DNA from: a virus
Lineage: Duplodnaviria; Heunggongvirae; Uroviricota; Caudoviricetes
DNA: 43,652 nucleotides
Strand: one strand, 5' to 3'
IMG/VR virus record: IMGVR_UViG_2617270938_000005
Span: 1-43,652 of that record
Part shown: piece by piece, positions 4,888 to 40,154 of the stretch
Position numbering within the stretch: the first letter of the stretch is position 1
How the letters are laid out: each line of letters opens with the position of its first letter
The notes under the pieces: generated by a model
Seen by the model: only the letters and a program-made list of their open reading frames with translations
Told to the model about the DNA's origin: nothing
The model's database searches: none
Translations under genes and position numbers: made by a program

Positions 4888-6080
4888 GAGACCACCAGAT
4901 TAATATTGCTGACGGCGCAGGATGCTGACTGGTCAAAGGCAATATCCACGTTTGCCGCGGCTACGCCACCGGCAGACGTCCCGATCAGCAACTCGGTAAT
5001 GTCGTAATACCTGGCATTACCACCACTGACAACACCAAGGTTAGCCGGTGAGTAAACGCGACTGAGAAGAACGCTGGCGCCGATTGCCAGTGAGTTAATG
5101 TAGGCAGATACAGCCGCCTTTATCTCTTCGCCAACCTGGGATGTGTAGCCCGTAAGAGGTTCGATAGTGATTTTGACGTAAATGGGTACATCGACCGGCC
5201 TTGAAAAACCTACCGGGTGAGGGTTTCCGTACTTATCAGGCACAACAATCACCGTACTACCGTAGGGTGTTACGCCCTGCCCTTTCACACCACGAATGCT
5301 GTTTGCAATGACCGTCGCATCACCACCTTCTACAATGGCGGCGATTGAGTGCGGAGGCAGGCCATTTGCATCAGTGGTATCTGTATCGTTCTCATACAGC
5401 TTGTGTCGCGTTACGCCGCTGATATTTGCTATCGCGCCATCTACCGCCTCAAACGGCGTCAGAGACGGTAAAGCAACGCTCTGTGATTGCCGGACACGCA
5501 ATTCAGCATTTGTTTCGGCAGCAACGCCTACCGTAGCCGCTTGCGGGTTAGTTACTGATACCCAACCACGTGTCGGGGTGTTTATCTTATTGACTGCCCC
5601 GGCAGGGGCCGCCACAGCGCCAGCAACAGAACACGTCGCTGTAGCAATAACCGTCCCATCAATACCAATTGTCACCTGAGCAGGAAGATTCCAGATGATG
5701 CCGTTGGCATCTTTCACAGAGCCGTTTGTGATTAACGTTCCGGCCTCACCTTCGATCAGCTCATCGACCGTAGAATTTGTCGCAGCCCGGCGAGCGATGC
5801 CGTTAATTTTGACGTTACTGGTTAATGCATCGTCCAGCGCCGTCGACGGAGAAAATGACCGGTAAACAGAAATGGCCGTGTTGTTGGCATCATGAATGGC
5901 CAGAGCCACCAGAGCGACCATCTGGCCGTCTTTGCTGTCCGGGTCGAGATAGGCATCACTGCCATAAATCTGCTGAAAATAGCTAATCAGGGTGCTGAGT
6001 ATCGTCTGATAATCAGGCGCACTTATCCCCTCAGCGGTTACCGTTGCCGATAAGCCGAGTGTGTCGAGGTCCAGAGCCAT
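4884..6080 (-). CDS. baseplate J-like protein
   Basis: 398-aa ORF in baseplate position; size and position as in Mu/P2-type baseplates. Confidence 0.55.
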   Translation of the reverse strand: MALDLDTLGLSATVTAEGISAPDYQTILSTLISYFQQIYGSDAYLDPDSKDGQMVALVALAIHDANNTAISVYRSFSPSTALDDALTSNVKINGIARRAATNSTVDELIEGEAGTLITNGSVKDANGIIWNLPAQVTIGIDGTVIATATCSVAGAVAAPAGAVNKINTPTRGWVSVTNPQAATVGVAAETNAELRVRQSQSVALPSLTPFEAVDGAIANISGVTRHKLYENDTDTTDANGLPPHSIAAIVEGGDATVIANSIRGVKGQGVTPYGSTVIVVPDKYGNPHPVGFSRPVDVPIYVKITIEPLTGYTSQVGEEIKAAVSAYINSLAIGASVLLSRVYSPANLGVVSGGNARYYDITELLIGTSAGGVAAANVDIAFDQSASCAVSNINLVVS

Positions 6081-31930: not shown

Positions 31931-32040
31931 ATGCCCTCCATAGTAACCTCGAATAAAAAATACAATATGTACTTTCCAAATACAAGCAAAAATACACATT
32001 GTGCATGGATGGTTCCAGTACAGAGCGTAATAATAAGGAC
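31931..32040. promoter_or_regulatory. oR/pR/pRM region with TACAnnnnTGT-type operator repeats
   Basis: Repeats tacaatatgtact (31961-31973) and tacacattgtg (31993-32003); related sites in oL; candidate pR TTGTAT-17-TATTTT on minus strand. Confidence 0.5.
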
Positions 32041-32700
32041 ATGAAAATGAAATGGTATGAACTGGCTAGATCCAGAATGAAAGAGCTCGGCATAACTCAA
32101 GAGAAGTTAGCCGAAGAGCTAGGTATGACGCAGGGTGGGATTGGACACTGGTTGCGCGGATCTCGTCATCCATCTCTTAGTGATATTGGTGTGGTGTTTA
32201 AATACCTTGGTATTGATAACATATCATTCAACCACGACGGGACATTTTCACCTGTTGGCGAATACTCATCGGCCCCAGTTAAAAAACAATATGAGTACCC
32301 TGTATTTTCTCATGTTCAGGCTGGGATGTTCTCTCCAGAACTCAGAACCTTTACCAAAGGCGATGCGGAGAGATTGGTAAGCACAACCAAAAAAGCCAGT
32401 GACTCTGCATTCTGGCTTGAGGTTGAAGGTAACTCAATGACCGCACCAACAGGTTCCAAACCCAGTTTTCCTGACGGGATGTTAATTCTGGTTGACCCTG
32501 AGCAAGCTGTTGAGCCCGGCGATTTCTGCATAGCCAGACTTGGTGGTGATGAATTTACCTTCAAGAAACTGATCAGGGATAGCGGTCAGGTGTTTCTACA
32601 GCCACTAAACCCACAATACCCAATAATCCCATGCAATGAGAGTTGTTCCGTTGTGGGGAAAGTTATCGCTAGTCAGTGGCCTGAAGAGACGTTTGGGTGA
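32041..32700 (+). CDS. cI: CI repressor (HTH_XRE plus S24 LexA-like peptidase domain)
   Basis: N-terminal HTH; AG cleavage site; GNSM ... FKKL Ser/Lys dyad. Confidence 0.9.
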
Positions 32701-32746: not shown

Positions 32747-33289
32747 GTGGCTAAAAAAGGCGACTTTAAGCCTACCCAGAAAGAGGTTGACCAAGCTATT
32801 ACTCGCTTGAAAAAAGTAACTTTTAGCGGAGTTACATGGACCGGAAGTGAGGGACGAACCCCAATCTGGTTTAAATTGGATCTCAAAGCTTTTGATGAAA
32901 TTGGCAACCCAATCACAGGCATAAGATTTATGCTTCACTGGCGTCCTCCTATCGTTGAAGGGGTGGATATAGTGAAGATTTCATTTGTGATGTTTCTTCA
33001 TGACAGGCGCATTTACGCGCTTGATCCGTACCCTGCGGATAACAAGCCACACCGTAATAAATCTATAGTGAACCATCCAGATTTTGTTGAGGTGGCTCGA
33101 GGTCCTCACTATCACATGTACTTCGAATCAGCTGGGGAAGAAATTGCACTTAAGCTTGAAACGAACATCAAGCCAGATGATTTTTTTGGCTACTGGAATT
33201 ATTTTTGCGAGGCGCTTAATATCATATATGAAGGCAGCCCACCTTTACCTAATCAAGATAAATCAGGTCAGTTATCATGGGAAATGTAA
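32747..33289 (+). CDS. hypothetical protein A of cI-linked two-gene cassette (rexA position)
   Basis: 180-aa ORF with GTG start 46 nt after cI stop; no recognisable family; overlaps downstream ORF by 13 nt. Confidence 0.5.
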   Translation: MAKKGDFKPTQKEVDQAITRLKKVTFSGVTWTGSEGRTPIWFKLDLKAFDEIGNPITGIRFMLHWRPPIVEGVDIVKISFVMFLHDRRIYALDPYPADNKPHRNKSIVNHPDFVEVARGPHYHMYFESAGEEIALKLETNIKPDDFFGYWNYFCEALNIIYEGSPPLPNQDKSGQLSWEM

Positions 33290-34053
33290 CGTGTTCAACA
33301 GTCATATCTAAGCTCGGGTTTGAATGCCACCCAATGAGCGACACGTTGCTGCGCGTTATTAGTCCATTCACATACTACGATGATTGTGAGCAGATAAGTG
33401 TATTCGTTCAAGAGATGAGTGGTCAGTATAGGGTTACAGACTACTGCGATACATTGATGAATATTGAATCACGCGGCATCCACCTGACTAAAAAGAAAAT
33501 TGATCTGATCAGGTCATCACTCGCTTCGCAAGGAATTTCATTAAATGACTCTGGAGAGATATCTGCGTGGGCAGATGAGTCGTCCGTTGGACAGGTAACT
33601 GCAAATGTTATTCGTGGTGGGATTCTTGCATCCGCCCAAACTGCTGATTGGTATGCTGAGGTCAAAGACGATAAGTTCGAAAAATGTGTAATCAGTTACT
33701 TAAAATCAGCAGGGCTTGGGAAGCGACTAGTCTTAAAGGAAAAAGTGAAAGGTATTAGTGGGCATAACATTACTGTTCCGTTAACGCTAAGGAATGAGTC
33801 TCGACTAATACCACCAAAACGCGGGTTTACGGTAAGCCTTGCCAGCAGTAAGGGATGGAATACTGCCCACTCAACAGTTGGGAAGATTGTTGACTTAAGT
33901 CAGGTCGTTCCTGACATAAACAATAGATTTGTAATAGTTGACAGCGATGGGTTAACACCTGAGCTACAGCAACTATCATTACTATTTAATGATACCGCAC
34001 GAGTGTTGCCATTCCATACCAGAGACTCTTGGATTGAGTCTCTGGTAGCCTAG
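33277..34053 (+). CDS. hypothetical protein B of cI-linked two-gene cassette (rexB position)
   Basis: 258-aa ORF (alternative start at Met 33334); followed directly by terminator; no recognisable family. Confidence 0.5.
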   Translation: MGNVTCSTVISKLGFECHPMSDTLLRVISPFTYYDDCEQISVFVQEMSGQYRVTDYCDTLMNIESRGIHLTKKKIDLIRSSLASQGISLNDSGEISAWADESSVGQVTANVIRGGILASAQTADWYAEVKDDKFEKCVISYLKSAGLGKRLVLKEKVKGISGHNITVPLTLRNESRLIPPKRGFTVSLASSKGWNTAHSTVGKIVDLSQVVPDINNRFVIVDSDGLTPELQQLSLLFNDTARVLPFHTRDSWIESLVA

Positions 34054-34083
34054 AAAAACCCGGCCTCAGCGCCGGGTTTTCTT
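34054..34083 (+). terminator. rho-independent terminator closing the cI operon (timm-like)
   Basis: CCCGGC-CTCAGC-GCCGGG hairpin followed by TTTTCTTTG. Confidence 0.75.
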
Positions 34084-34224
34084 TGCCTCACCCCCCACCT
34101 AAAGACACATAACCAAATGTATTTATTGAAAAATAAATAGATACAACTCACTAAACCACGCAATTCTGATCTCTCCTTACATCGCCGAGGCGATACACCC
34201 ACGCTAAAAAACAACACTATTAAA

Positions 34225-34297
34225 TACAAAGTGTTATAAAAAATCACCCCATTTTAGAACAAATCGTATTGACCCAATAAAGTACATATCGTACTAT
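34225..34297 (+). promoter_or_regulatory. oL/pL: TTGACC-17-TACTAT promoter with overlapping palindromic operator AGTAC-ATATC-GTACT
   Basis: -35 at 34269-34274, -10 at 34292-34297; operator 34281-34295 and tacaaagtgtta at 34225-34236. Confidence 0.6.
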
Positions 34298-34343
34298 TTA
34301 ACCGTCAGCAGGACGCTGGAAGCCAAACGGAACAGACTGGCAG

Positions 34344-34371
34344 GCTCTTTAAACAACGTCGAACTCTCGAC
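34344..34371 (+). promoter_or_regulatory. nutL (boxA GCTCTTTAAACAACG plus boxB hairpin GTCGA-ACTC-TCGAC)
   Basis: Between pL and N; parallels nutR. Confidence 0.55.
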
Positions 34372-34487
34372 TACGTGGCTGAAAAGCCAGATCACCCAAC
34401 CACATGAGCTGTGGGATGCAATGCCGAAGCAACCGTCTCAGGAGGAGCTTCGAGATTGCATCACCAAAGTTTATTCGGGAGGAATCT

Positions 34488-34760
34488 ATGTCCAGAAAAA
34501 CAGAATTTAAAGGCACCTCAGCTTCTCGTCGTAGAGCTCGTCGCGCAAACCTGCAAAGTCAGGAGGCGATTAGCTCCGACAAGCTACACAGACCAACCCC
34601 CTCTCGAGTGGTCTTGCAATGCAAGCGCAAACCAGCAATGAGAGCAGAAGTAATAACACTGACAACGTTGACCAGAAAATATGAAGGCTCAACTTGTCTT
34701 CCAAATGTAGCTCTTTACGCGGCAGGCTACAGGAAATCAAAACAACTGACAGCAAGGTGA
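34488..34760 (+). CDS. N: antitermination protein N (P22 gp24-like)
   Basis: Arg-rich motif SRRRARRANLQ; C-terminus LPNVALYAAGYRKSKQLTAR matches P22 gp24 LPGVALYAAGHRKSKQITAR; GGGAGG RBS. Confidence 0.8.
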   Translation: MSRKTEFKGTSASRRRARRANLQSQEAISSDKLHRPTPSRVVLQCKRKPAMRAEVITLTTLTRKYEGSTCLPNVALYAAGYRKSKQLTAR

Positions 34761-34818
34761 CTTGTGTTGGTCGCCAGAAAACGAAGGGCAAATCCATCGC
34801 ATTAATCTGAGGTGGCCC

Positions 34819-34983
34819 ATGAAGAACAGCATCAAGTGCCCGGTATGCGGTCGTGACTTCGATCCACGCACTCCGGTCTGCCACATCAGCAAGTATCACC
34901 AGTCAGCGAAGAACTGCGAGCTGGAGAAGATACGCGATGCCCGGCGGCAATATTTCAAAGTAACAGCGAGTGAGGTTCGGTGA
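34819..34983 (+). CDS. small zinc-ribbon protein
   Basis: 54 aa with CPVCG...C..H motif. Confidence 0.35.
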   Translation: MKNSIKCPVCGRDFDPRTPVCHISKYHQSAKNCELEKIRDARRQYFKVTASEVR

Positions 34984-35321
34984 TGGAAAATAAAACGGCT
35001 AACGGGATGTACGTACTGCGTGGTGAGCTGAAAAAGGGACTGATAGCGGAGCTGGTAAAGGCATACGACCAGCTGACTCAGGAGTCAGAAAAATTAAAGA
35101 TCCTCGGACTCAGGTATAACACCCCTCGACGCATTGTTTATGGCTTTATGTATGAGGTTGCAGCATTAACCGTCAAGGAAATTATGTTTAAAACTGAGGG
35201 TGGCTTTTACATCCCACAGGATGACTTCGAATCGAGCGACGATATCGATTCATTAGCCAAAGAGATCATCGATGTAATTGACTGTAATGGCGCATTCCTT
35301 GAGCGCCTTCTTAAGGAGTAG
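34983..35321 (+). CDS. hypothetical protein
   Basis: 112-aa ORF, TGATG start/stop overlap. Confidence 0.35.
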   Translation: MENKTANGMYVLRGELKKGLIAELVKAYDQLTQESEKLKILGLRYNTPRRIVYGFMYEVAALTVKEIMFKTEGGFYIPQDDFESSDDIDSLAKEIIDVIDCNGAFLERLLKE

Positions 35322-35323
35322 CC

Positions 35324-35515
35324 ATGAAAAAACTGTATGAAAAACTCCCGGTCGTAGTGCAGGGGTCATTTTGGGTCTGCTTATCACTGCGGCCATTCTT
35401 CTGTCTACCCCGCCAGTCGTCATGTTTCTTCGTTGGTGGTTCAGAGTTTGGGGTGTCTGATCGGCGCAAGCATTACGCACAGAACGAATCGAGCGGGTCG
35501 AGTGGCCTGCGGTGA
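35324..35515 (+). CDS. small hypothetical protein
   Basis: 63-aa ORF with AAGGAG RBS. Confidence 0.35.
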   Translation: MKKLYEKLPVVVQGSFWVCLSLRPFFCLPRQSSCFFVGGSEFGVSDRRKHYAQNESSGSSGLR

Positions 35516-35535
35516 ATAAACAAAGGGGTGAGGGT

Positions 35536-35718
35536 ATGGAAAATTTGGACAATGAACTGAAAAGAGTAGTTCAGGAACTGGCCAATGAAGAAGGCATCAG
35601 TTTTGCCGATGCCGTGGACGTTTCGATTAAGACGCTTCGTTACGAAATTCAGCATAGAAAGTCTTTTAATGGGTCGCCTGACCCCGATGGAGGCGCATCA
35701 GGAGTAGAGGTACGCTGA
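35536..35718 (+). CDS. small hypothetical protein
   Basis: 60-aa ORF with GGGTGAGGG RBS. Confidence 0.3.
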   Translation: MENLDNELKRVVQELANEEGISFADAVDVSIKTLRYEIQHRKSFNGSPDPDGGASGVEVR

Positions 35719-35864
35719 CCAAATATCGAAGCGGCAAACAAAAATCGCTGGGGTTTGACGATTGGTGTAACTGGATAGATAGATACGGAACTTGGTGGGA
35801 TAAATAACAGGTAACTTAAGCGTATTTACTTTCGCAGCAAACCACTTATTTGAGAGGAATTAAT

Positions 35865-36488
35865 ATGTCATCAATCCGCTTAACTACGAGAATGAAAGAG
35901 AAAATCGCTCGTAACGCTTTAATTAAGTCTGGGGTTTTCACTGAACTTGAAGAAGTAACAAAGTTAAAGAACCAGCTTGCACTTGACGCCAGAGTTATTG
36001 CGTTTGGCGGTAAAAAGAAAACTGAGGAAGTGGATCAGTTATCATCCAAGTTGGTAGCTATAAGTGAAGAACTTGAAAAGATGGGATGTTCATTTTACTC
36101 ATACGATGTTAGTTCTACTTCAATTTATCTGACTGTATCTGGCAGAAGGGTTGGATGGCATTCATATGGGAAAGACGGCAACGGCGAAGATATATTGCTC
36201 CCTACTCCGACAAAAGATAAATGCATGTTTGACGCAGAGCACGAAATAACAAAAAGGTTTGATGAAATCTGCGCATTGCAACAAAAACTTGAAGTCAGGA
36301 AAAAGGATATCGAATCAAATGTATGGGCTGCTTTGAACTCAGTCACAACAGTTAAGCGACTTATTGAAGTTTGGCCTGAAAGCAAAGAATTGCTACCAGA
36401 AGAAGCAGATAAAGCAAGTACAGCACTTCCTGCTTTACGGGTAGAAGATTTGAATAAGATGATTGGACTTCCTTCCGAGGCCGCATAG
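35865..36488 (+). CDS. hypothetical protein
   Basis: 207-aa ORF with GAGAGG RBS. Confidence 0.4.
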   Translation: MSSIRLTTRMKEKIARNALIKSGVFTELEEVTKLKNQLALDARVIAFGGKKKTEEVDQLSSKLVAISEELEKMGCSFYSYDVSSTSIYLTVSGRRVGWHSYGKDGNGEDILLPTPTKDKCMFDAEHEITKRFDEICALQQKLEVRKKDIESNVWAALNSVTTVKRLIEVWPESKELLPEEADKASTALPALRVEDLNKMIGLPSEAA

Positions 36489-36620
36489 TCGGCCTTTACT
36501 TTTGGCATAAACAACAGAATAAACACTGCACTGTGTATTCATTCCAACGAGTGAATACACGGAGCAATGTCGCTCGTAACTAAACAGGAGCCGACTTGTT
36601 CTGATTATTGGAAATCTTCT

Positions 36621-36648
36621 TTGCCCTCCAGTGTGAGGGCAATTTTTT
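36621..36648 (+). terminator. rho-independent terminator (tL-like) inside pL operon
   Basis: TTGCCCTC-CAGTGT-GAGGGCAA followed by TTTTTT; next gene starts 13 nt later. Confidence 0.7.
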
Positions 36649-36660
36649 GACGGAGGATAT

Positions 36661-37629
36661 ATGAGTGAAGTAACAGATTTAGTTGTTATTGAAAAATCAA
36701 ATGCAATGACTGTATTTCAGTCTGCCGACCAGATTGAAGAAATTCTCCAAAAGGTTGAACGTGAAGTTATGTCCTTTGTGCCTGATGTTACAACGGCAAA
36801 GGGCAGAAAGGAGATCGCTTCTCTGGCGTATAAAGTTGCGCAGACGAAAACATATCTCGATGGTCTTGCCAAAGACCTTGTTGCTGAACTGAAGGAAATT
36901 CCAAAGCTAATTGATGCTAACCGTAAGACAGTGCGTGATCGCCTTGATGAGCTGAAAGCCAAGGCGCGCCAGCCTCTTACTGATTATGAGGAAGAACAGG
37001 CGAGGATTAAAGCCGAAGAAGAAGCTAAGGCAGCAGCTGAAGCTCTCGCAAAGCAAATTGAGTCTGACCATGAAATAGCGATTTTGATGGATCGCGAATT
37101 TGACCGCCAAAGAGAAGAGGCAAGACTCAAAGCTGAGCAGGAAAAGCGAGAGCATGAAGAACGCTTAAAAAGAGAAGCTGAAGAGAAAGCCAGAGCTGAA
37201 GCCGAAGCAAAGGCAAAAGCCGAAATTGAAGCAGCAGCAAGGCGAGAAGCAGAAGCTAAGGCCGCAGCGGAACGTGCAGAGCGTGAACGCATTGAAGCCG
37301 AGCAACGAGCACAGCGCGAAGCAAAAGAGGCAGCAGGACGAGCTGAAAGAGAAAAGCATGCGGCAATTGAAGCAGAACGCCGTAAAGCACAGGAGGAGGC
37401 AGAACGAATCCGTCGCGAGGCTGAAGCAAAAGAGCAAGCCAGAATCGCAGAAGAAAAAAGAATCAAGGACGAAGAAGAGCGCAGAGCAAAGGATAAAGCT
37501 CACCGGAAAGAAGTAAATAACAAAATACTTGCTGACCTTATCAAGGTTGGCGCATCAGAAGATGTTGCTAAAAATATCATAATAGCCATCGCAAAAGGCG
37601 AAGTATTCGCAACAAAAATAACCTACTAA
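36661..37629 (+). CDS. hypothetical protein with long E/A/K/R-rich coiled-coil
   Basis: 322 aa; central region of AEAKA/EEAER-type charged repeats. Confidence 0.45.
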   Translation: MSEVTDLVVIEKSNAMTVFQSADQIEEILQKVEREVMSFVPDVTTAKGRKEIASLAYKVAQTKTYLDGLAKDLVAELKEIPKLIDANRKTVRDRLDELKAKARQPLTDYEEEQARIKAEEEAKAAAEALAKQIESDHEIAILMDREFDRQREEARLKAEQEKREHEERLKREAEEKARAEAEAKAKAEIEAAARREAEAKAAAERAERERIEAEQRAQREAKEAAGRAEREKHAAIEAERRKAQEEAERIRREAEAKEQARIAEEKRIKDEEERRAKDKAHRKEVNNKILADLIKVGASEDVAKNIIIAIAKGEVFATKITY

Positions 37630-37653
37630 TAAAACCAACATAAGGAACCACCC

Positions 37654-37785
37654 ATGATTTACGCAATCGCGGGAGGCGCTCGCATGGGTGCCTTCCAATT
37701 AAATGAATCTTTACTTGAACGAATCACCCGTAAATTACGTGACGGATGGAAAAGAGTTGAGGTCTTATTATGCGCAATGAAATAG
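37654..37785 (+). CDS. cIII: CIII (FtsH inhibitor)
   Basis: MIYAIAGGARMGAFQLNESLLERITRKLRDGWKRVEVLLCAMK; lambda CIII core ESLLERITRKLRDGWKRL conserved; not in ORF track (44 aa). Confidence 0.75.
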   Translation: MIYAIAGGARMGAFQLNESLLERITRKLRDGWKRVEVLLCAMK

Positions 37786-37922
37786 CCATCAATCACCAGA
37801 TGCTTCGTGCGGCACAAAACAAAGCAGTAATAGCCAGATTTATTGGTGATTCCAAAATGTGGCTTGAAGCAAATAAAGAGATGAAATCAGCTATCAACCT
37901 TCCATGGTATCGCAGGAAATGA
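37770..37922 (+). CDS. kil: Kil-like protein
   Basis: 50-aa ORF overlapping cIII end, as in lambda; ...ARFIGDSKMWLEA... reminiscent of Kil. Confidence 0.5.
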   Translation: MRNEIAINHQMLRAAQNKAVIARFIGDSKMWLEANKEMKSAINLPWYRRK

Positions 37923-37997
37923 GTTTTACAGATAACTGGTCAGACGAAGAATTCATTCGTCAGATGAAAGAATTAATCGGTAACGAAGGAGATATTC

Positions 37998-38168
37998 ATG
38001 TCACTTGCAACCACAGTGAAGGAGAGCAAGTTACAGAGACGCATGTACACGCAGAAAGCTCTCTGGTATCGCCATAATGGCGACCGCGAAGGAATGCGGG
38101 TATGCCTTAATTTGTCCCGAGTCGAAGTATTAAATCAGCGTTATTTCCTTGGGCCGTGTCCATTCTGA
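37998..38168 (+). CDS. small hypothetical protein
   Basis: About 56-aa ORF with AGGAG RBS; end coordinate approximate. Confidence 0.3.
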   Translation: MSLATTVKESKLQRRMYTQKALWYRHNGDREGMRVCLNLSRVEVLNQRYFLGPCPF

Positions 38169-38176
38169 GGTGAATT

Positions 38177-38884
38177 ATGGATTTGAATAAATTCGATGAG
38201 CCATTCAGCCCTGAAGATATCGAATGGCGAATACAGCAAAGCGGTAAAACACGCGATGGCAAAGTGTGGGCTATGGTGCTGGCTTATGTCACGAACCGGG
38301 CAATCATGAAACGCCTGGACGATGTTTGCGGCAAAGCAGGATGGCGCAATGAATACCGCGATATTCCCAACAACGGCGGCGTTGAATGCGGCATATCAAT
38401 AAAGATTGATTCCGAATGGGTAACCAAATGGGATGCTGCTGAAAACACGCAGGTAGAAGCCGTCAAAGGTGGTCGTTCCGGTGCAATGAAGCGCGCTGCC
38501 GTTCAGTGGGGAATCGGTCGGTATCTGTATAACCTTGAGGAAGGTTTCGCACAAACATCTCTCGATAAAAAGCAGGGATGGCACAGGGCAAAACTCAAGG
38601 ATGGAACAGGATTTTACTGGCTCCCTCCATCGCTGCCGGGATGGGCAATACCAGCATCAGATAACAAACCATCACCAGAAAATACCAACCAGAAATCTCC
38701 ATCGGTTGACTGCGAACAAATCCTGAAAGACTTCAGCGATTATGCGTCAACAGAAACTGACAAGAAAAAACTCATCGAGCGTTATCAGCGTGACTGGCAA
38801 TTAATGGCTGGCAATGAGGAGGCGCAGGCTAAATGCGTTCAGGTAATGAACATCAGAGTTAACGAACTAAAACAGGCGGCATAA
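38177..38884 (+). CDS. Rad52-family single-strand annealing protein
   Basis: N-terminal SPEDIEWRIQQSG...VWAMVLAYVTNRAIMKRLDDVCGKAGWRNEY is Rad52/Sak-like; lies in the recombination slot next to ssb. Confidence 0.65.
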   Translation: MDLNKFDEPFSPEDIEWRIQQSGKTRDGKVWAMVLAYVTNRAIMKRLDDVCGKAGWRNEYRDIPNNGGVECGISIKIDSEWVTKWDAAENTQVEAVKGGRSGAMKRAAVQWGIGRYLYNLEEGFAQTSLDKKQGWHRAKLKDGTGFYWLPPSLPGWAIPASDNKPSPENTNQKSPSVDCEQILKDFSDYASTETDKKKLIERYQRDWQLMAGNEEAQAKCVQVMNIRVNELKQAA

Positions 38885-39358
38885 ATGTCAAGCAGAGGCG
38901 TAAATAAGGTGATTATCCTTGGTCGGGTAGGACAAGACCCGGAAGTTCGATACTCACCATCAGGAACAGCGTTCGCTAACCTGACAATAGCCACGTCAGA
39001 ACAATGGCGAGATAAAAATACTGGCGAGCAAAAGGAATTGACTGAATGGCACCGCGTGGTAATGAGCGGGAAACTGGCAGAAATTGCCAGCGAATATCTG
39101 CGAAAAGGCTCTGAGGTTTATCTTGAAGGTAAATTGCGGACAAGAAAATGGCAGGATCAAAGCGGACAGGATCGGTTCACTACCGAAATCATCGTGGGCG
39201 TTGGTGGAACCATGCAAATGCTTGGTGGCAAGCAAGGAGGCAATGAACAGTCTTCACCTCAGCGAAATAACGGTCAGCAACAAAGACAGCAACCTCAGCA
39301 GCAGGGAAATCACAGCGAACCACCTATGAACTTCGACGATTCGGATATTCCGTTCTAG
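38885..39358 (+). CDS. ssb: single-stranded DNA-binding protein
   Basis: OB-fold N-terminus, Gln/Gly-rich linker, C-terminal DDSDIPF tail. Confidence 0.9.
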
Positions 39359-39367
39359 GAGCTGAAT

Positions 39368-39847
39368 ATGAAAATCTGCTCAAGATGCCATCAACAGAAG
39401 GAAGAAAGGGACTTTCAAATCAGAAGAGCATCCAGAGATGGATTAACTGCCGCTTGCCGGGCTTGCCTGGCTGAATACGACAAAGAACGCGCTGGATTGC
39501 CACATCGAGTATCAGCAAGGAGAGAATATCAATCATCGGAACGCGGAAGAGAACGGTGTAACGCAGCCAAAAAGCGGTTCATTCAGAGCAACCCATGGAA
39601 AAGAAAAGCCCACATCATTGTGGGTAATTTTTTGCGCGACGGTAAGCTAATCCGACCACCACAATGTGAGTGCTGCGGATCAGAATGTAAACCACAGGCG
39701 CACCACTGCGACTACAGCAAACCAACCGATGTGATGTGGCTCTGCAAGTCATGTCATGCCGAGTGGCACAAACATAACAAACCTATCTACCCAGACGAGG
39801 AACCAGTAACTCTCCCCTTCCCTCGTCACGCTATTCACGCAATTTAA
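39368..39847 (+). CDS. HNH endonuclease-like protein
   Basis: Cys clusters and HHCDYSKP...WLCKSCHAEWH HNH-type motif. Confidence 0.5.
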   Translation: MKICSRCHQQKEERDFQIRRASRDGLTAACRACLAEYDKERAGLPHRVSARREYQSSERGRERCNAAKKRFIQSNPWKRKAHIIVGNFLRDGKLIRPPQCECCGSECKPQAHHCDYSKPTDVMWLCKSCHAEWHKHNKPIYPDEEPVTLPFPRHAIHAI

Positions 39848-39860
39848 TCAGGAGAAAATC

Positions 39861-40154
39861 ATGCCAGCGCCTCAGTATGGTGCGGATGACCCGCGCCGCT
39901 GTTCCGGCAAATCCGTATCGGAGGTGCTGGATAAATTCAGAAAAAACTACGATCGGATAATGTCGCTACCGCAGGAAACGAAAGAGGAAAAGGAATTTCG
40001 CCACTGTATATGGCTTGCAGAGAAAGAAGAACTCGAGCGAATTTACCAGACATCAATCCGACCATTCCGCAAAGCCACATATACCCACTTCCCTGAAATT
40101 GACCCGCGCCTGCGTAATTACCGCTCACGCTATGGCGCTATCAGTAATGACTGA
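39861..40154 (+). CDS. hypothetical protein
   Basis: 97-aa ORF. Confidence 0.3.

Follow-up and report, generated by a model that had tools for sequence, protein, structure and literature searches.

Agt of phage phi80 has reportedly been presented as an antitoxin for Gam, in the 2012 abstract of Rotman and colleagues on the phi80 genome. In the phi80 record (JX871397, PHI80_40), agt carries the label 'anti-toxin for Gam; Mog (modifier of Gam)' and the adjoining gamL the label 'toxic without Mog', the record of phage HF4s draws the same Agt-Gam link, and a literature search on Agt and GamL found nothing further. Here we describe a relative of phi80 Agt, a protein of 322 amino acids (aa) encoded in the window, by which we mean the entire stretch of 43,652 nucleotides (nt) analysed, the lambdoid (pro)phage of IMG/VR virus record IMGVR_UViG_2617270938_000005, whose pL operon runs on the + strand. 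The gene lies in this early-left operon between the antiterminator gene N and cIII, and has close counterparts in Sf6 (gene 33), mEp234, HK544, IME10, CUS-3 and Stx1a phages, of which no experimental studies were found in the literature. These phages share with the window the leader, the terminator and the downstream cIII, whereas their upstream genes, which are gene 36, ral and gene 34 in Sf6 and sieB in the Stx1a phage, differ entirely from those of the window.

Judged by sequence similarity, the 322-aa protein very probably belongs to the phi80 Agt/Mog family: it is 49% identical to phi80 Agt over the full length (E 7e-48) and 40% over the first 155 aa, and phi80 Agt has the same length of 322 aa, the same three-part layout, and the same operon and orientation upstream of recombination genes. 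Because of this homologue and of the synteny set out below, we propose, as a possibility that falls a little short of likely, that the protein, made in the delayed-early phase, may modulate the recombination and anti-RecBCD module, which here includes Abc2. Neutralisation of toxicity by Agt is known from phi80 genetics through the GenBank notes, and its extension to the window would be by analogy. The sequence-only reading had seen no recognisable function in any of the six open reading frames (ORFs) between N and cIII, a statement that fails both for this gene and for the 207-aa gene upstream of it, which belongs to the Nmad5 family. The parts of the Agt-like gene and its product are as follows.

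36661..37629, + strand: 322-aa Agt/Mog-family protein
36661-37005: N-domain, residues ~1-115
37105-37545: predicted single long helix, residues 149-295
Residues ~278-322: C-domain, ending ...KITY

The protein matches phrog_1376, is 97% identical to Sf6 gene 33 (NP_958209) and 95-98% identical to the genes of the six phages or phage groups named above, and its gene is present in 530 of 5,426 complete E. coli genomes. Beyond these close relatives, the three-part layout is common to homologues from E. coli, Pseudomonas D3, Vibrio, Sinorhizobium and Serratia phages. It consists of an N-domain of ~115 aa with invariant V40, D42, T45, G48, R49, K63, K78 and P105, a middle region of variable length, and a C-domain of ~45 aa, whose last residue is Y in 90 and F in 12 of the 113 full-length top matches. 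A profile of the N-domain, searched against 1.84 billion representatives, matched 5,726 clusters (50% identity) at E<=1e-3 and 5,064 at E<=1e-10. Sequence and profile searches found no relative of the family in Pfam, NCBIfam, PADLOC or PDB; with the modelled structure as query, the best PDB match had an E of 5.9 and BFVD returned the protein's own family only.

The AlphaFold2 monomer model of the 322-aa protein (predicted local distance difference test score, pLDDT, 82.6) is all-helical, with one uninterrupted helix from residue 149 to 295 whose pLDDT exceeds 95 over most of its length. The charged central helix that had been noticed from the sequence alone is thus there, with 57% charged residues and 25% alanine, but it lacks the heptad hydrophobic seam of the coiled coil for which it had been taken. 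Residues 150-285 contain 0-2 hydrophobic residues per stretch of 28, in no fixed register, or about one per 14-25 residues, and the density of opposite charges at i/i+4 is 0.33. With no heptad a/d seam, a classic coiled coil was rejected in favour of a single-helix-like spacer, and an ER/K single alpha-helix fits the model better. The helix has in common with ER/K single alpha-helix domains and with TolA domain II a high content of E, R, K and A, dense opposite charges at i/i+4, a scarcity of hydrophobic residues and a single helix predicted with confidence; the single-helix state is read from the sequence and a monomer model, and an alanine-rich oligomeric coiled coil is also possible. As for the AEAKA/EEAER-like repeats previously suggested, true tandem repeats are absent at the DNA level, where there is only a weak 6-nt periodicity (Tandem Repeats Finder score 36).

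Most database entries of the family are labelled 'partial', and are truncated or frame-shifted within the E/A/K/R region; the repetitive GAAGC-rich DNA seems to break short-read assemblies of Agt-like genes, and such breaks probably contribute to the poor annotation of the family. A further oddity is protein P0093 of one E. coli contig, named 'DUF2856 family protein' by NCBI, in which an in-frame deletion fuses Agt-like residues 1-80 to the last ~31 residues of Abc2 and removes cIII, kil and the entire recombination module. Its combination of an Agt N-terminus and an Abc2 Pfam match was rejected as evidence of kinship, being a simple deletion fusion in one prophage. DUF1351 adjoins recombinases in Gram-positive phages, and kinship of the Agt-like family with it is possible; one look in phage 80alpha found no member.

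The second line of evidence for the proposed role is the position of the gene. Downstream of it, the window carries the following genes.

37654-37785, + strand: cIII (Pfam Lambda_CIII, E 4e-15)
37770-37922, + strand: kil (Pfam Lambda_Kil, E 6e-19)
37904-38077, + strand: 57-aa ORF in the gap between kil and the annealing-protein gene
38177..40154, + strand: recombination module (Rad52-like, SSB, HNH-like, Abc2)
38177-38884, + strand: Rad52-like annealing protein (Pfam Rad52_Rad22, E 5e-26)
38885-39358, + strand: SSB
39368-39847, + strand: Cys-rich HNH-like ORF
39861-40154, + strand: Abc2 anti-RecBCD protein (Pfam Anti-RecBCD_p2, E 3.9e-61)

The Sf6 record annotates equivalents of the genes of this module. 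In phi80, by contrast, the module is GamL-RecT-Exo rather than Rad52-like/SSB/HNH/Abc2, and agt stands directly before gamL-recT-exo, whereas cIII, kil and the 57-aa ORF intervene in the window. To see how general such an arrangement is, 205 loci from 16 lineages (80% N-domain identity) were compared, 162 of which had at least 3 kb on both sides. In 149 of these 162 loci the 3 kb that follow the Agt-like gene encode an annealing protein on the same strand, which is directly adjacent in 77; only 3 loci have one upstream. Depending on the phage, this partner is ERF, RecT/Bet, Rad52 or Sak4, families that are not mutually homologous; Pfam matches downstream of the 16 lineage representatives were YqaJ (6), ERF (4), RecT (3), SSB (3), NinB (3) and Rad52 (1). 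The named phages agree with this picture, as the order is Agt-GamL-RecT-Exo in phi80, Agt-like, Erf-like and Exo in D3 and phiLM21, and N-sieB-[322 aa]-cIII-kil-gam-bet-exo in the Stx1a phage, and Exo VIII and Bet are annotated near the Agt-like gene of Serratia phage Eta.

The predicted expression of the gene is in keeping with a delayed-early function. The elements that bear on it are listed below.

34269-34297: pL-like promoter (promoter prediction)
34344..34389, + strand: nutL-like site, read directly from the sequence 3' of the pL-like promoter
34344-34352: nutL boxA-like GCTCTTTAA, read from the sequence
34376-34389: nutL boxB-like hairpin TGGCTGAAAAGCCA, read from the sequence
34488..34760, + strand: antiterminator N (Pfam N_peptide, E 7.6e-32)
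36477..36562, + strand: structured leader, with a hairpin at 36477-36496 across the Nmad5 stop codon and a 14-bp hairpin at 36531-36562
36621..36648, + strand: intrinsic terminator of the lambda tL2a type

The N_peptide match spans residues 27-118 of a longer N ORF, and translation likely starts at the ATG at 34488, 3' of a GGAGG; the function of the nutL-like site is assigned by analogy with lambda nutL. The terminator that the sequence-only reading placed before the 322-aa gene proved real: an 8-bp stem (36621-36642) with five G-C pairs (free energy, deltaG, -13.2 kcal/mol; z = -3.4) is followed by U6 (36643-36648) and lies 12 nt before the ATG. A generic terminator scan of the window found 9 candidates against 8.2 expected in shuffles and hence no enrichment, yet this terminator is credible, because its hairpin is kept in 81 of 81 related loci aligned, the Sf6 record labels a 97%-identical stretch 'homology to phage lambda; tL2A', and the mEp234 record annotates a rho-independent terminator at the same site. 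In lambda as in the window, tL2a is an intrinsic terminator inside the pL operon before the gene preceding cIII, the homology being that stated by the Sf6 record; the position of the Agt-like gene is occupied in lambda by ea10 (ssb). From pL (34269-34297) to the 322-aa gene, promoter prediction gave no sigma-70-like site. Given the tL2a-type terminator, the nutL-like site and the lack of a promoter-like site after pL, it is a reasonable inference that expression of the 322-aa gene depends on N-mediated read-through.

The strongly structured leader of 170 nt (RNA fold of 36470-36665, z = -5.9) contains three hairpins, and the terminator is the final one. An Rfam search of 34000-38200 returned nothing meaningful. 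The hairpin at 36531-36562 is a perfect 14-bp stem with a 4-nt loop and without a U-tract (deltaG -18.8, z -5.3). Homology of the leader in relatives begins at -183, -170, -144, -133 or -99 nt from the ATG, and these staggered junctions match the 'bsq4 boundary sequence' of Sf6. The 14-bp hairpin behaves as a sub-module of its own, since homology starts at its 5' base (-133) in 23 relatives and just past it (-99) in 11; an RNA processing site and a recombination boundary are both possibilities for it.

Taken together, the proposed mechanism would run as follows. The pL transcript would reach the 322-aa gene only after N-mediated read-through of the terminator, jointly with the downstream recombination genes, and the protein would then act as a companion of the recombination and anti-nuclease module. 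Its two end domains, joined by a rigid helix of ~147 residues that would measure roughly 22 nm if continuous (1.5 A rise per residue), would bind, and then temper or redirect, the annealing proteins, the phage's inhibitor of host nucleases, or both, the inhibitor being Abc2 here, Gam in Stx phages and GamL in phi80, with the outcome that host RecBCD-type nucleases would be modified without killing of the cell. On a broader and more doubtful extension, the Agt family may have gone unrecognised as a widespread companion of the recombination modules of temperate phages in Proteobacteria, in which a single-helix 'ruler' bridges or restrains nuclease inhibitors, annealing proteins or RecBCD/SbcCD, whatever recombinase is present.

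Several observations weigh against the modulator role. The functional evidence for the whole family is one genetic observation in phi80, and neither Gam nor GamL is encoded in the window (tblastn, best E 0.75). The MEI008 prophage carries the Abc2 module without an Agt-like gene, and in the Wanchaivirus phage PDP110P2 a DUF2528-like gene replaces it; tolerance of Abc2 therefore does not require the 322-aa protein. A BLAST comparison recognised a downstream annealing protein in only 8 of 14 lineages, which is a lower bound, and the immediate neighbour in several lineages is Dam, a lysozyme-like protein or an unknown protein. Moreover, the searches run returned no relative of known function, by structure or by sequence, and the Agt-like protein is not among the module components in a survey of lambdoid Rec modules from 2025.

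The Agt-like gene is one of six + strand ORFs, of 54, 112, 63, 60, 207 and 322 aa, whose presence between N and cIII/kil was confirmed, each with a Shine-Dalgarno-like sequence. The five upstream of it are given here with one alternative frame.

34819..34983, + strand: 54-aa ORF, a single C2H2-type zinc finger (C7, C10, H22, H27)
34983..35321, + strand: 112-aa acidic orphan ORF
35324..35515, + strand: 63-aa ORF, a doubtful gene, with a poly-G tract at 35362-35365
35371-35460, + strand: alternative-frame 29-aa transmembrane-like peptide (maximum hydropathy 2.05)
35536..35718, + strand: 60-aa acidic orphan ORF
35865..36488, + strand: 207-aa Nmad5-family protein (PF18757)

The six had been read as one block in the place where lambda carries ral, sieB and ea10. 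The correspondence of position was borne out, as 72 close relatives from IMG/VR show a hypervariable slot with ral among its alternative occupants; the single block was not supported, since the 322-aa gene belongs with the cIII/kil backbone and not with the variable slot. Around the Agt-like gene of these 72 loci, the upstream genes are hypervariable and the downstream genes conserved: kil follows it in 60, and the downstream order is kil, the 57-aa ORF and then ERF (32 loci), Rad52 (28), Sak4 (3) or RecT (3), plus SSB and Abc2. Because no E. coli genome or phage record contains at least 80% of 34700-37700, the N-cIII interval is, on comparison of these sequences, best described as three separately exchanged modules. 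These are a rare cassette comprising the zinc finger, the 112-aa and 60-aa acidic orphans and the doubtful 63-aa ORF; the Nmad5-family gene; and a conserved backbone of structured leader, tL2a-type terminator, Agt-like gene, cIII and kil. The modules can be seen apart in individual genomes. From N to Nmad5 the DNA of the MEI008 prophage is 98.8% identical to the window, and a Rad52-SSB-Abc2 module is present without the Agt-like gene; in PDP110P2 (5100-5600, compared with 36600-36661 of the window), a 122-aa DUF2528-like ORF follows the same leader, terminator and ribosome-binding site. The DNA homology of PDP110P2 to the window ends exactly at the start codon, which makes this a very sharp mosaic junction.

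The four small ORFs of the cassette travel together and are found in 3 of 5,426 complete E. coli genomes and, among phages, in one record only, that of PDP110P2 (OZ035745). A tblastn search of phages with the 54-, 112- and 60-aa ORFs returned PDP110P2 and one weak Klebsiella phage match only, and the 112-aa and the 60-aa ORF each occur in one other phage record. The 54-aa ORF matches phrog_20899 (E 5e-7), designed and consensus C2H2 fingers in PDB (E 6e-5 and 6.5e-4) and, below threshold, Pfam zf-Di19 and the Rad50 hook, and it is called by the Prokaryotic Genome Annotation Pipeline (PGAP) in strain elppa10. For the 112-aa and 60-aa ORFs there was no match in Pfam, PHROGs, NCBIfam, PADLOC or PDB, and PGAP calls both in E. 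coli genomes with the same DNA.

That the 63-aa ORF is a conserved gene is unlikely, because PGAP omits it in two E. coli genomes with the same DNA and because the length of its poly-G tract varies among relatives, from G4 in the window to G6 in MEI008 and G6+TGGGG in elppa10, which also has a 21-nt duplication in this region. The shift in length changes the frame of the ORF past residue ~14 in MEI008, and the alternative 29-aa frame is open in all three sequences. With one extra G, translation from the ATG at 35324 would yield a protein of 46 aa containing a transmembrane-like helix (...VILGLLITAAILLSTPPVVMFLRWWFRVWGV). The tract could be a contingency tract, a sign of a decaying gene or sequencing noise.

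The 207-aa protein is a full-length, high-scoring member of the Nmad5 family, covering profile positions 1-206 of 206 of PF18757 (E 1.1e-70, 238.3 bits against a cut-off of 27) and matching phrog_1965 (E 5e-83). PGAP names it 'Nmad5 family putative nucleotide modification protein'. The family was reportedly predicted by Iyer et al. in 2013, and the label of nucleotide modification is based on gene neighbourhood. In the window, Pfam found no DNA-modification gene beside it, the neighbours from 34.4 to 40.9 kb being N, the small orphans, the Agt-like gene, cIII, kil, the recombination genes and Abc2. Its AlphaFold2 model (pLDDT 85.9) is a helical bundle with a beta-hairpin, for which PDB held no specific fold match and none that was enzyme-like.

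For the 322-aa protein itself, two other accounts can be set beside that of a recombination modulator. Many records carry the usual NCBI/PGAP name, 'cell envelope biogenesis protein TolA', and the composition does resemble that of TolA domain II; the likeness, however, is confined to the low-complexity E/A/K/R helix. Neither the protein nor nine relatives have a TolA Pfam domain, and the protein has no hydrophobic segment, N-terminal membrane anchor or signal sequence, its maximum 19-residue hydropathy being 1.18. The protein is cytoplasmic, and its reading as a TolA-like envelope protein, which we consider extremely improbable, is effectively refuted. An unlikely alternative, though a less remote one, is that it works as a structural tether or organiser of the KfrA type, linking phage DNA or replication-recombination complexes to a cell structure, with no relation to a nuclease inhibitor. 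Conserved end domains on a rigid helix whose length varies among relatives (322, 340, 354 aa and others) would suit a spacer or ruler, and the invariant basic residues K47, R49, K63 and K78 of the N-domain could bind nucleic acid, but no DNA-binding fold or motif was recognised, a membrane anchor is lacking, and the antidote phenotype of phi80 would be left unexplained.

The remaining account, which the sequence-only reading had drawn from the typical location of anti-restriction genes, is that the ORFs, in part or in full and above all the zinc finger, both acidic orphans and Nmad5, form an anti-defence cassette that inhibits restriction-modification or other defences early in infection. We regard it as rather doubtful, though several facts speak for it. 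DNA mimics are typically small, acidic proteins. In lambda, Sf6 and other relatives ral sits in this slot, and its hypervariability, together with the great rarity of the cassette, is what would be expected of arms-race genes. However, no anti-restriction or anti-defence family in Pfam, PHROGs, NCBIfam or PADLOC, the last of which covers defence systems and not inhibitors, was matched by any ORF; similarity to Ral, Lar, Ocr or Ard was absent in Pfam, PHROGs and NCBIfam, no dedicated anti-defence library having been searched; and no PADLOC, Pfam or PHROG family of known function ties the ORFs to such activity. Nmad5 is linked to defence in that Tmn escape mutations fall in nmad5 of Dhillonvirus (PMC11846954), but the gene appears there as a sensed or escape determinant rather than an inhibitor, its deletion did not abolish sensitivity to Tmn (PMC11846954), and it lies near the capsid genes in Dhillonvirus (PMC11846954), whereas the Nmad5 gene of the window is in the early operon. 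For the 322-aa gene, homology and synteny favour the recombination and anti-RecBCD module over anti-restriction. This evidence leans towards assigning the gene to recombination, an assignment that is not yet confident, and the modulator role remains the reading that we prefer for it.

Outside the interval, the window also contains the following genes.

31999-32700: cI-type repressor gene
32747-34053: two overlapping genes (180 and 258 aa) in the rexAB position

The products of this pair have weak PADLOC matches to the candidate defence system PDC-M24A/B (E 4e-4 and 6e-7), a match to DUF6978 under the gathering cut-off (23.6 against 29.6 bits) and one to DUF1828 at 40.9 bits, over the 22-bit cut-off, and they may be a prophage-encoded defence pair. 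The 57-aa ORF at 37904-38077 had no match in a Pfam search and is kept in 55 of the 72 related loci regardless of the recombinase downstream. A Pfam search likewise gave no match for the HNH-like ORF at 39368-39847. Its tail, ...PVTLPFPRHAIHAI, is identical to the tail that closes the SSB gene in relatives without this ORF, and the Sf6 record mentions a 14-residue stretch common to the two; the arrangement suggests that a mobile nuclease gene has been inserted where ssb ends at its 3' side.

For the window itself little changes, as its N-cIII region is an ordinary lambdoid mosaic with a terminator of known type, and its largest gene in this interval shares 97% identity with gene 33 of Sf6. The rare cassette of small ORFs, like Nmad5, is a reasonable place to look for anti-defence functions. 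The Agt-like protein, mis-annotated as TolA, is encoded by about 10% of complete E. coli genomes, Stx phages included, and is spread over thousands of phage lineages. The strictness of its position, ahead of annealing proteins of four unrelated kinds, points to a general role in the handling of host nucleases and recombination by temperate phages, which would be relevant to prophage induction, to the biology of Stx phages and to recombineering tools. The wider interest of this locus is, therefore, a very large, uncharacterised family tied to phage recombination modules.

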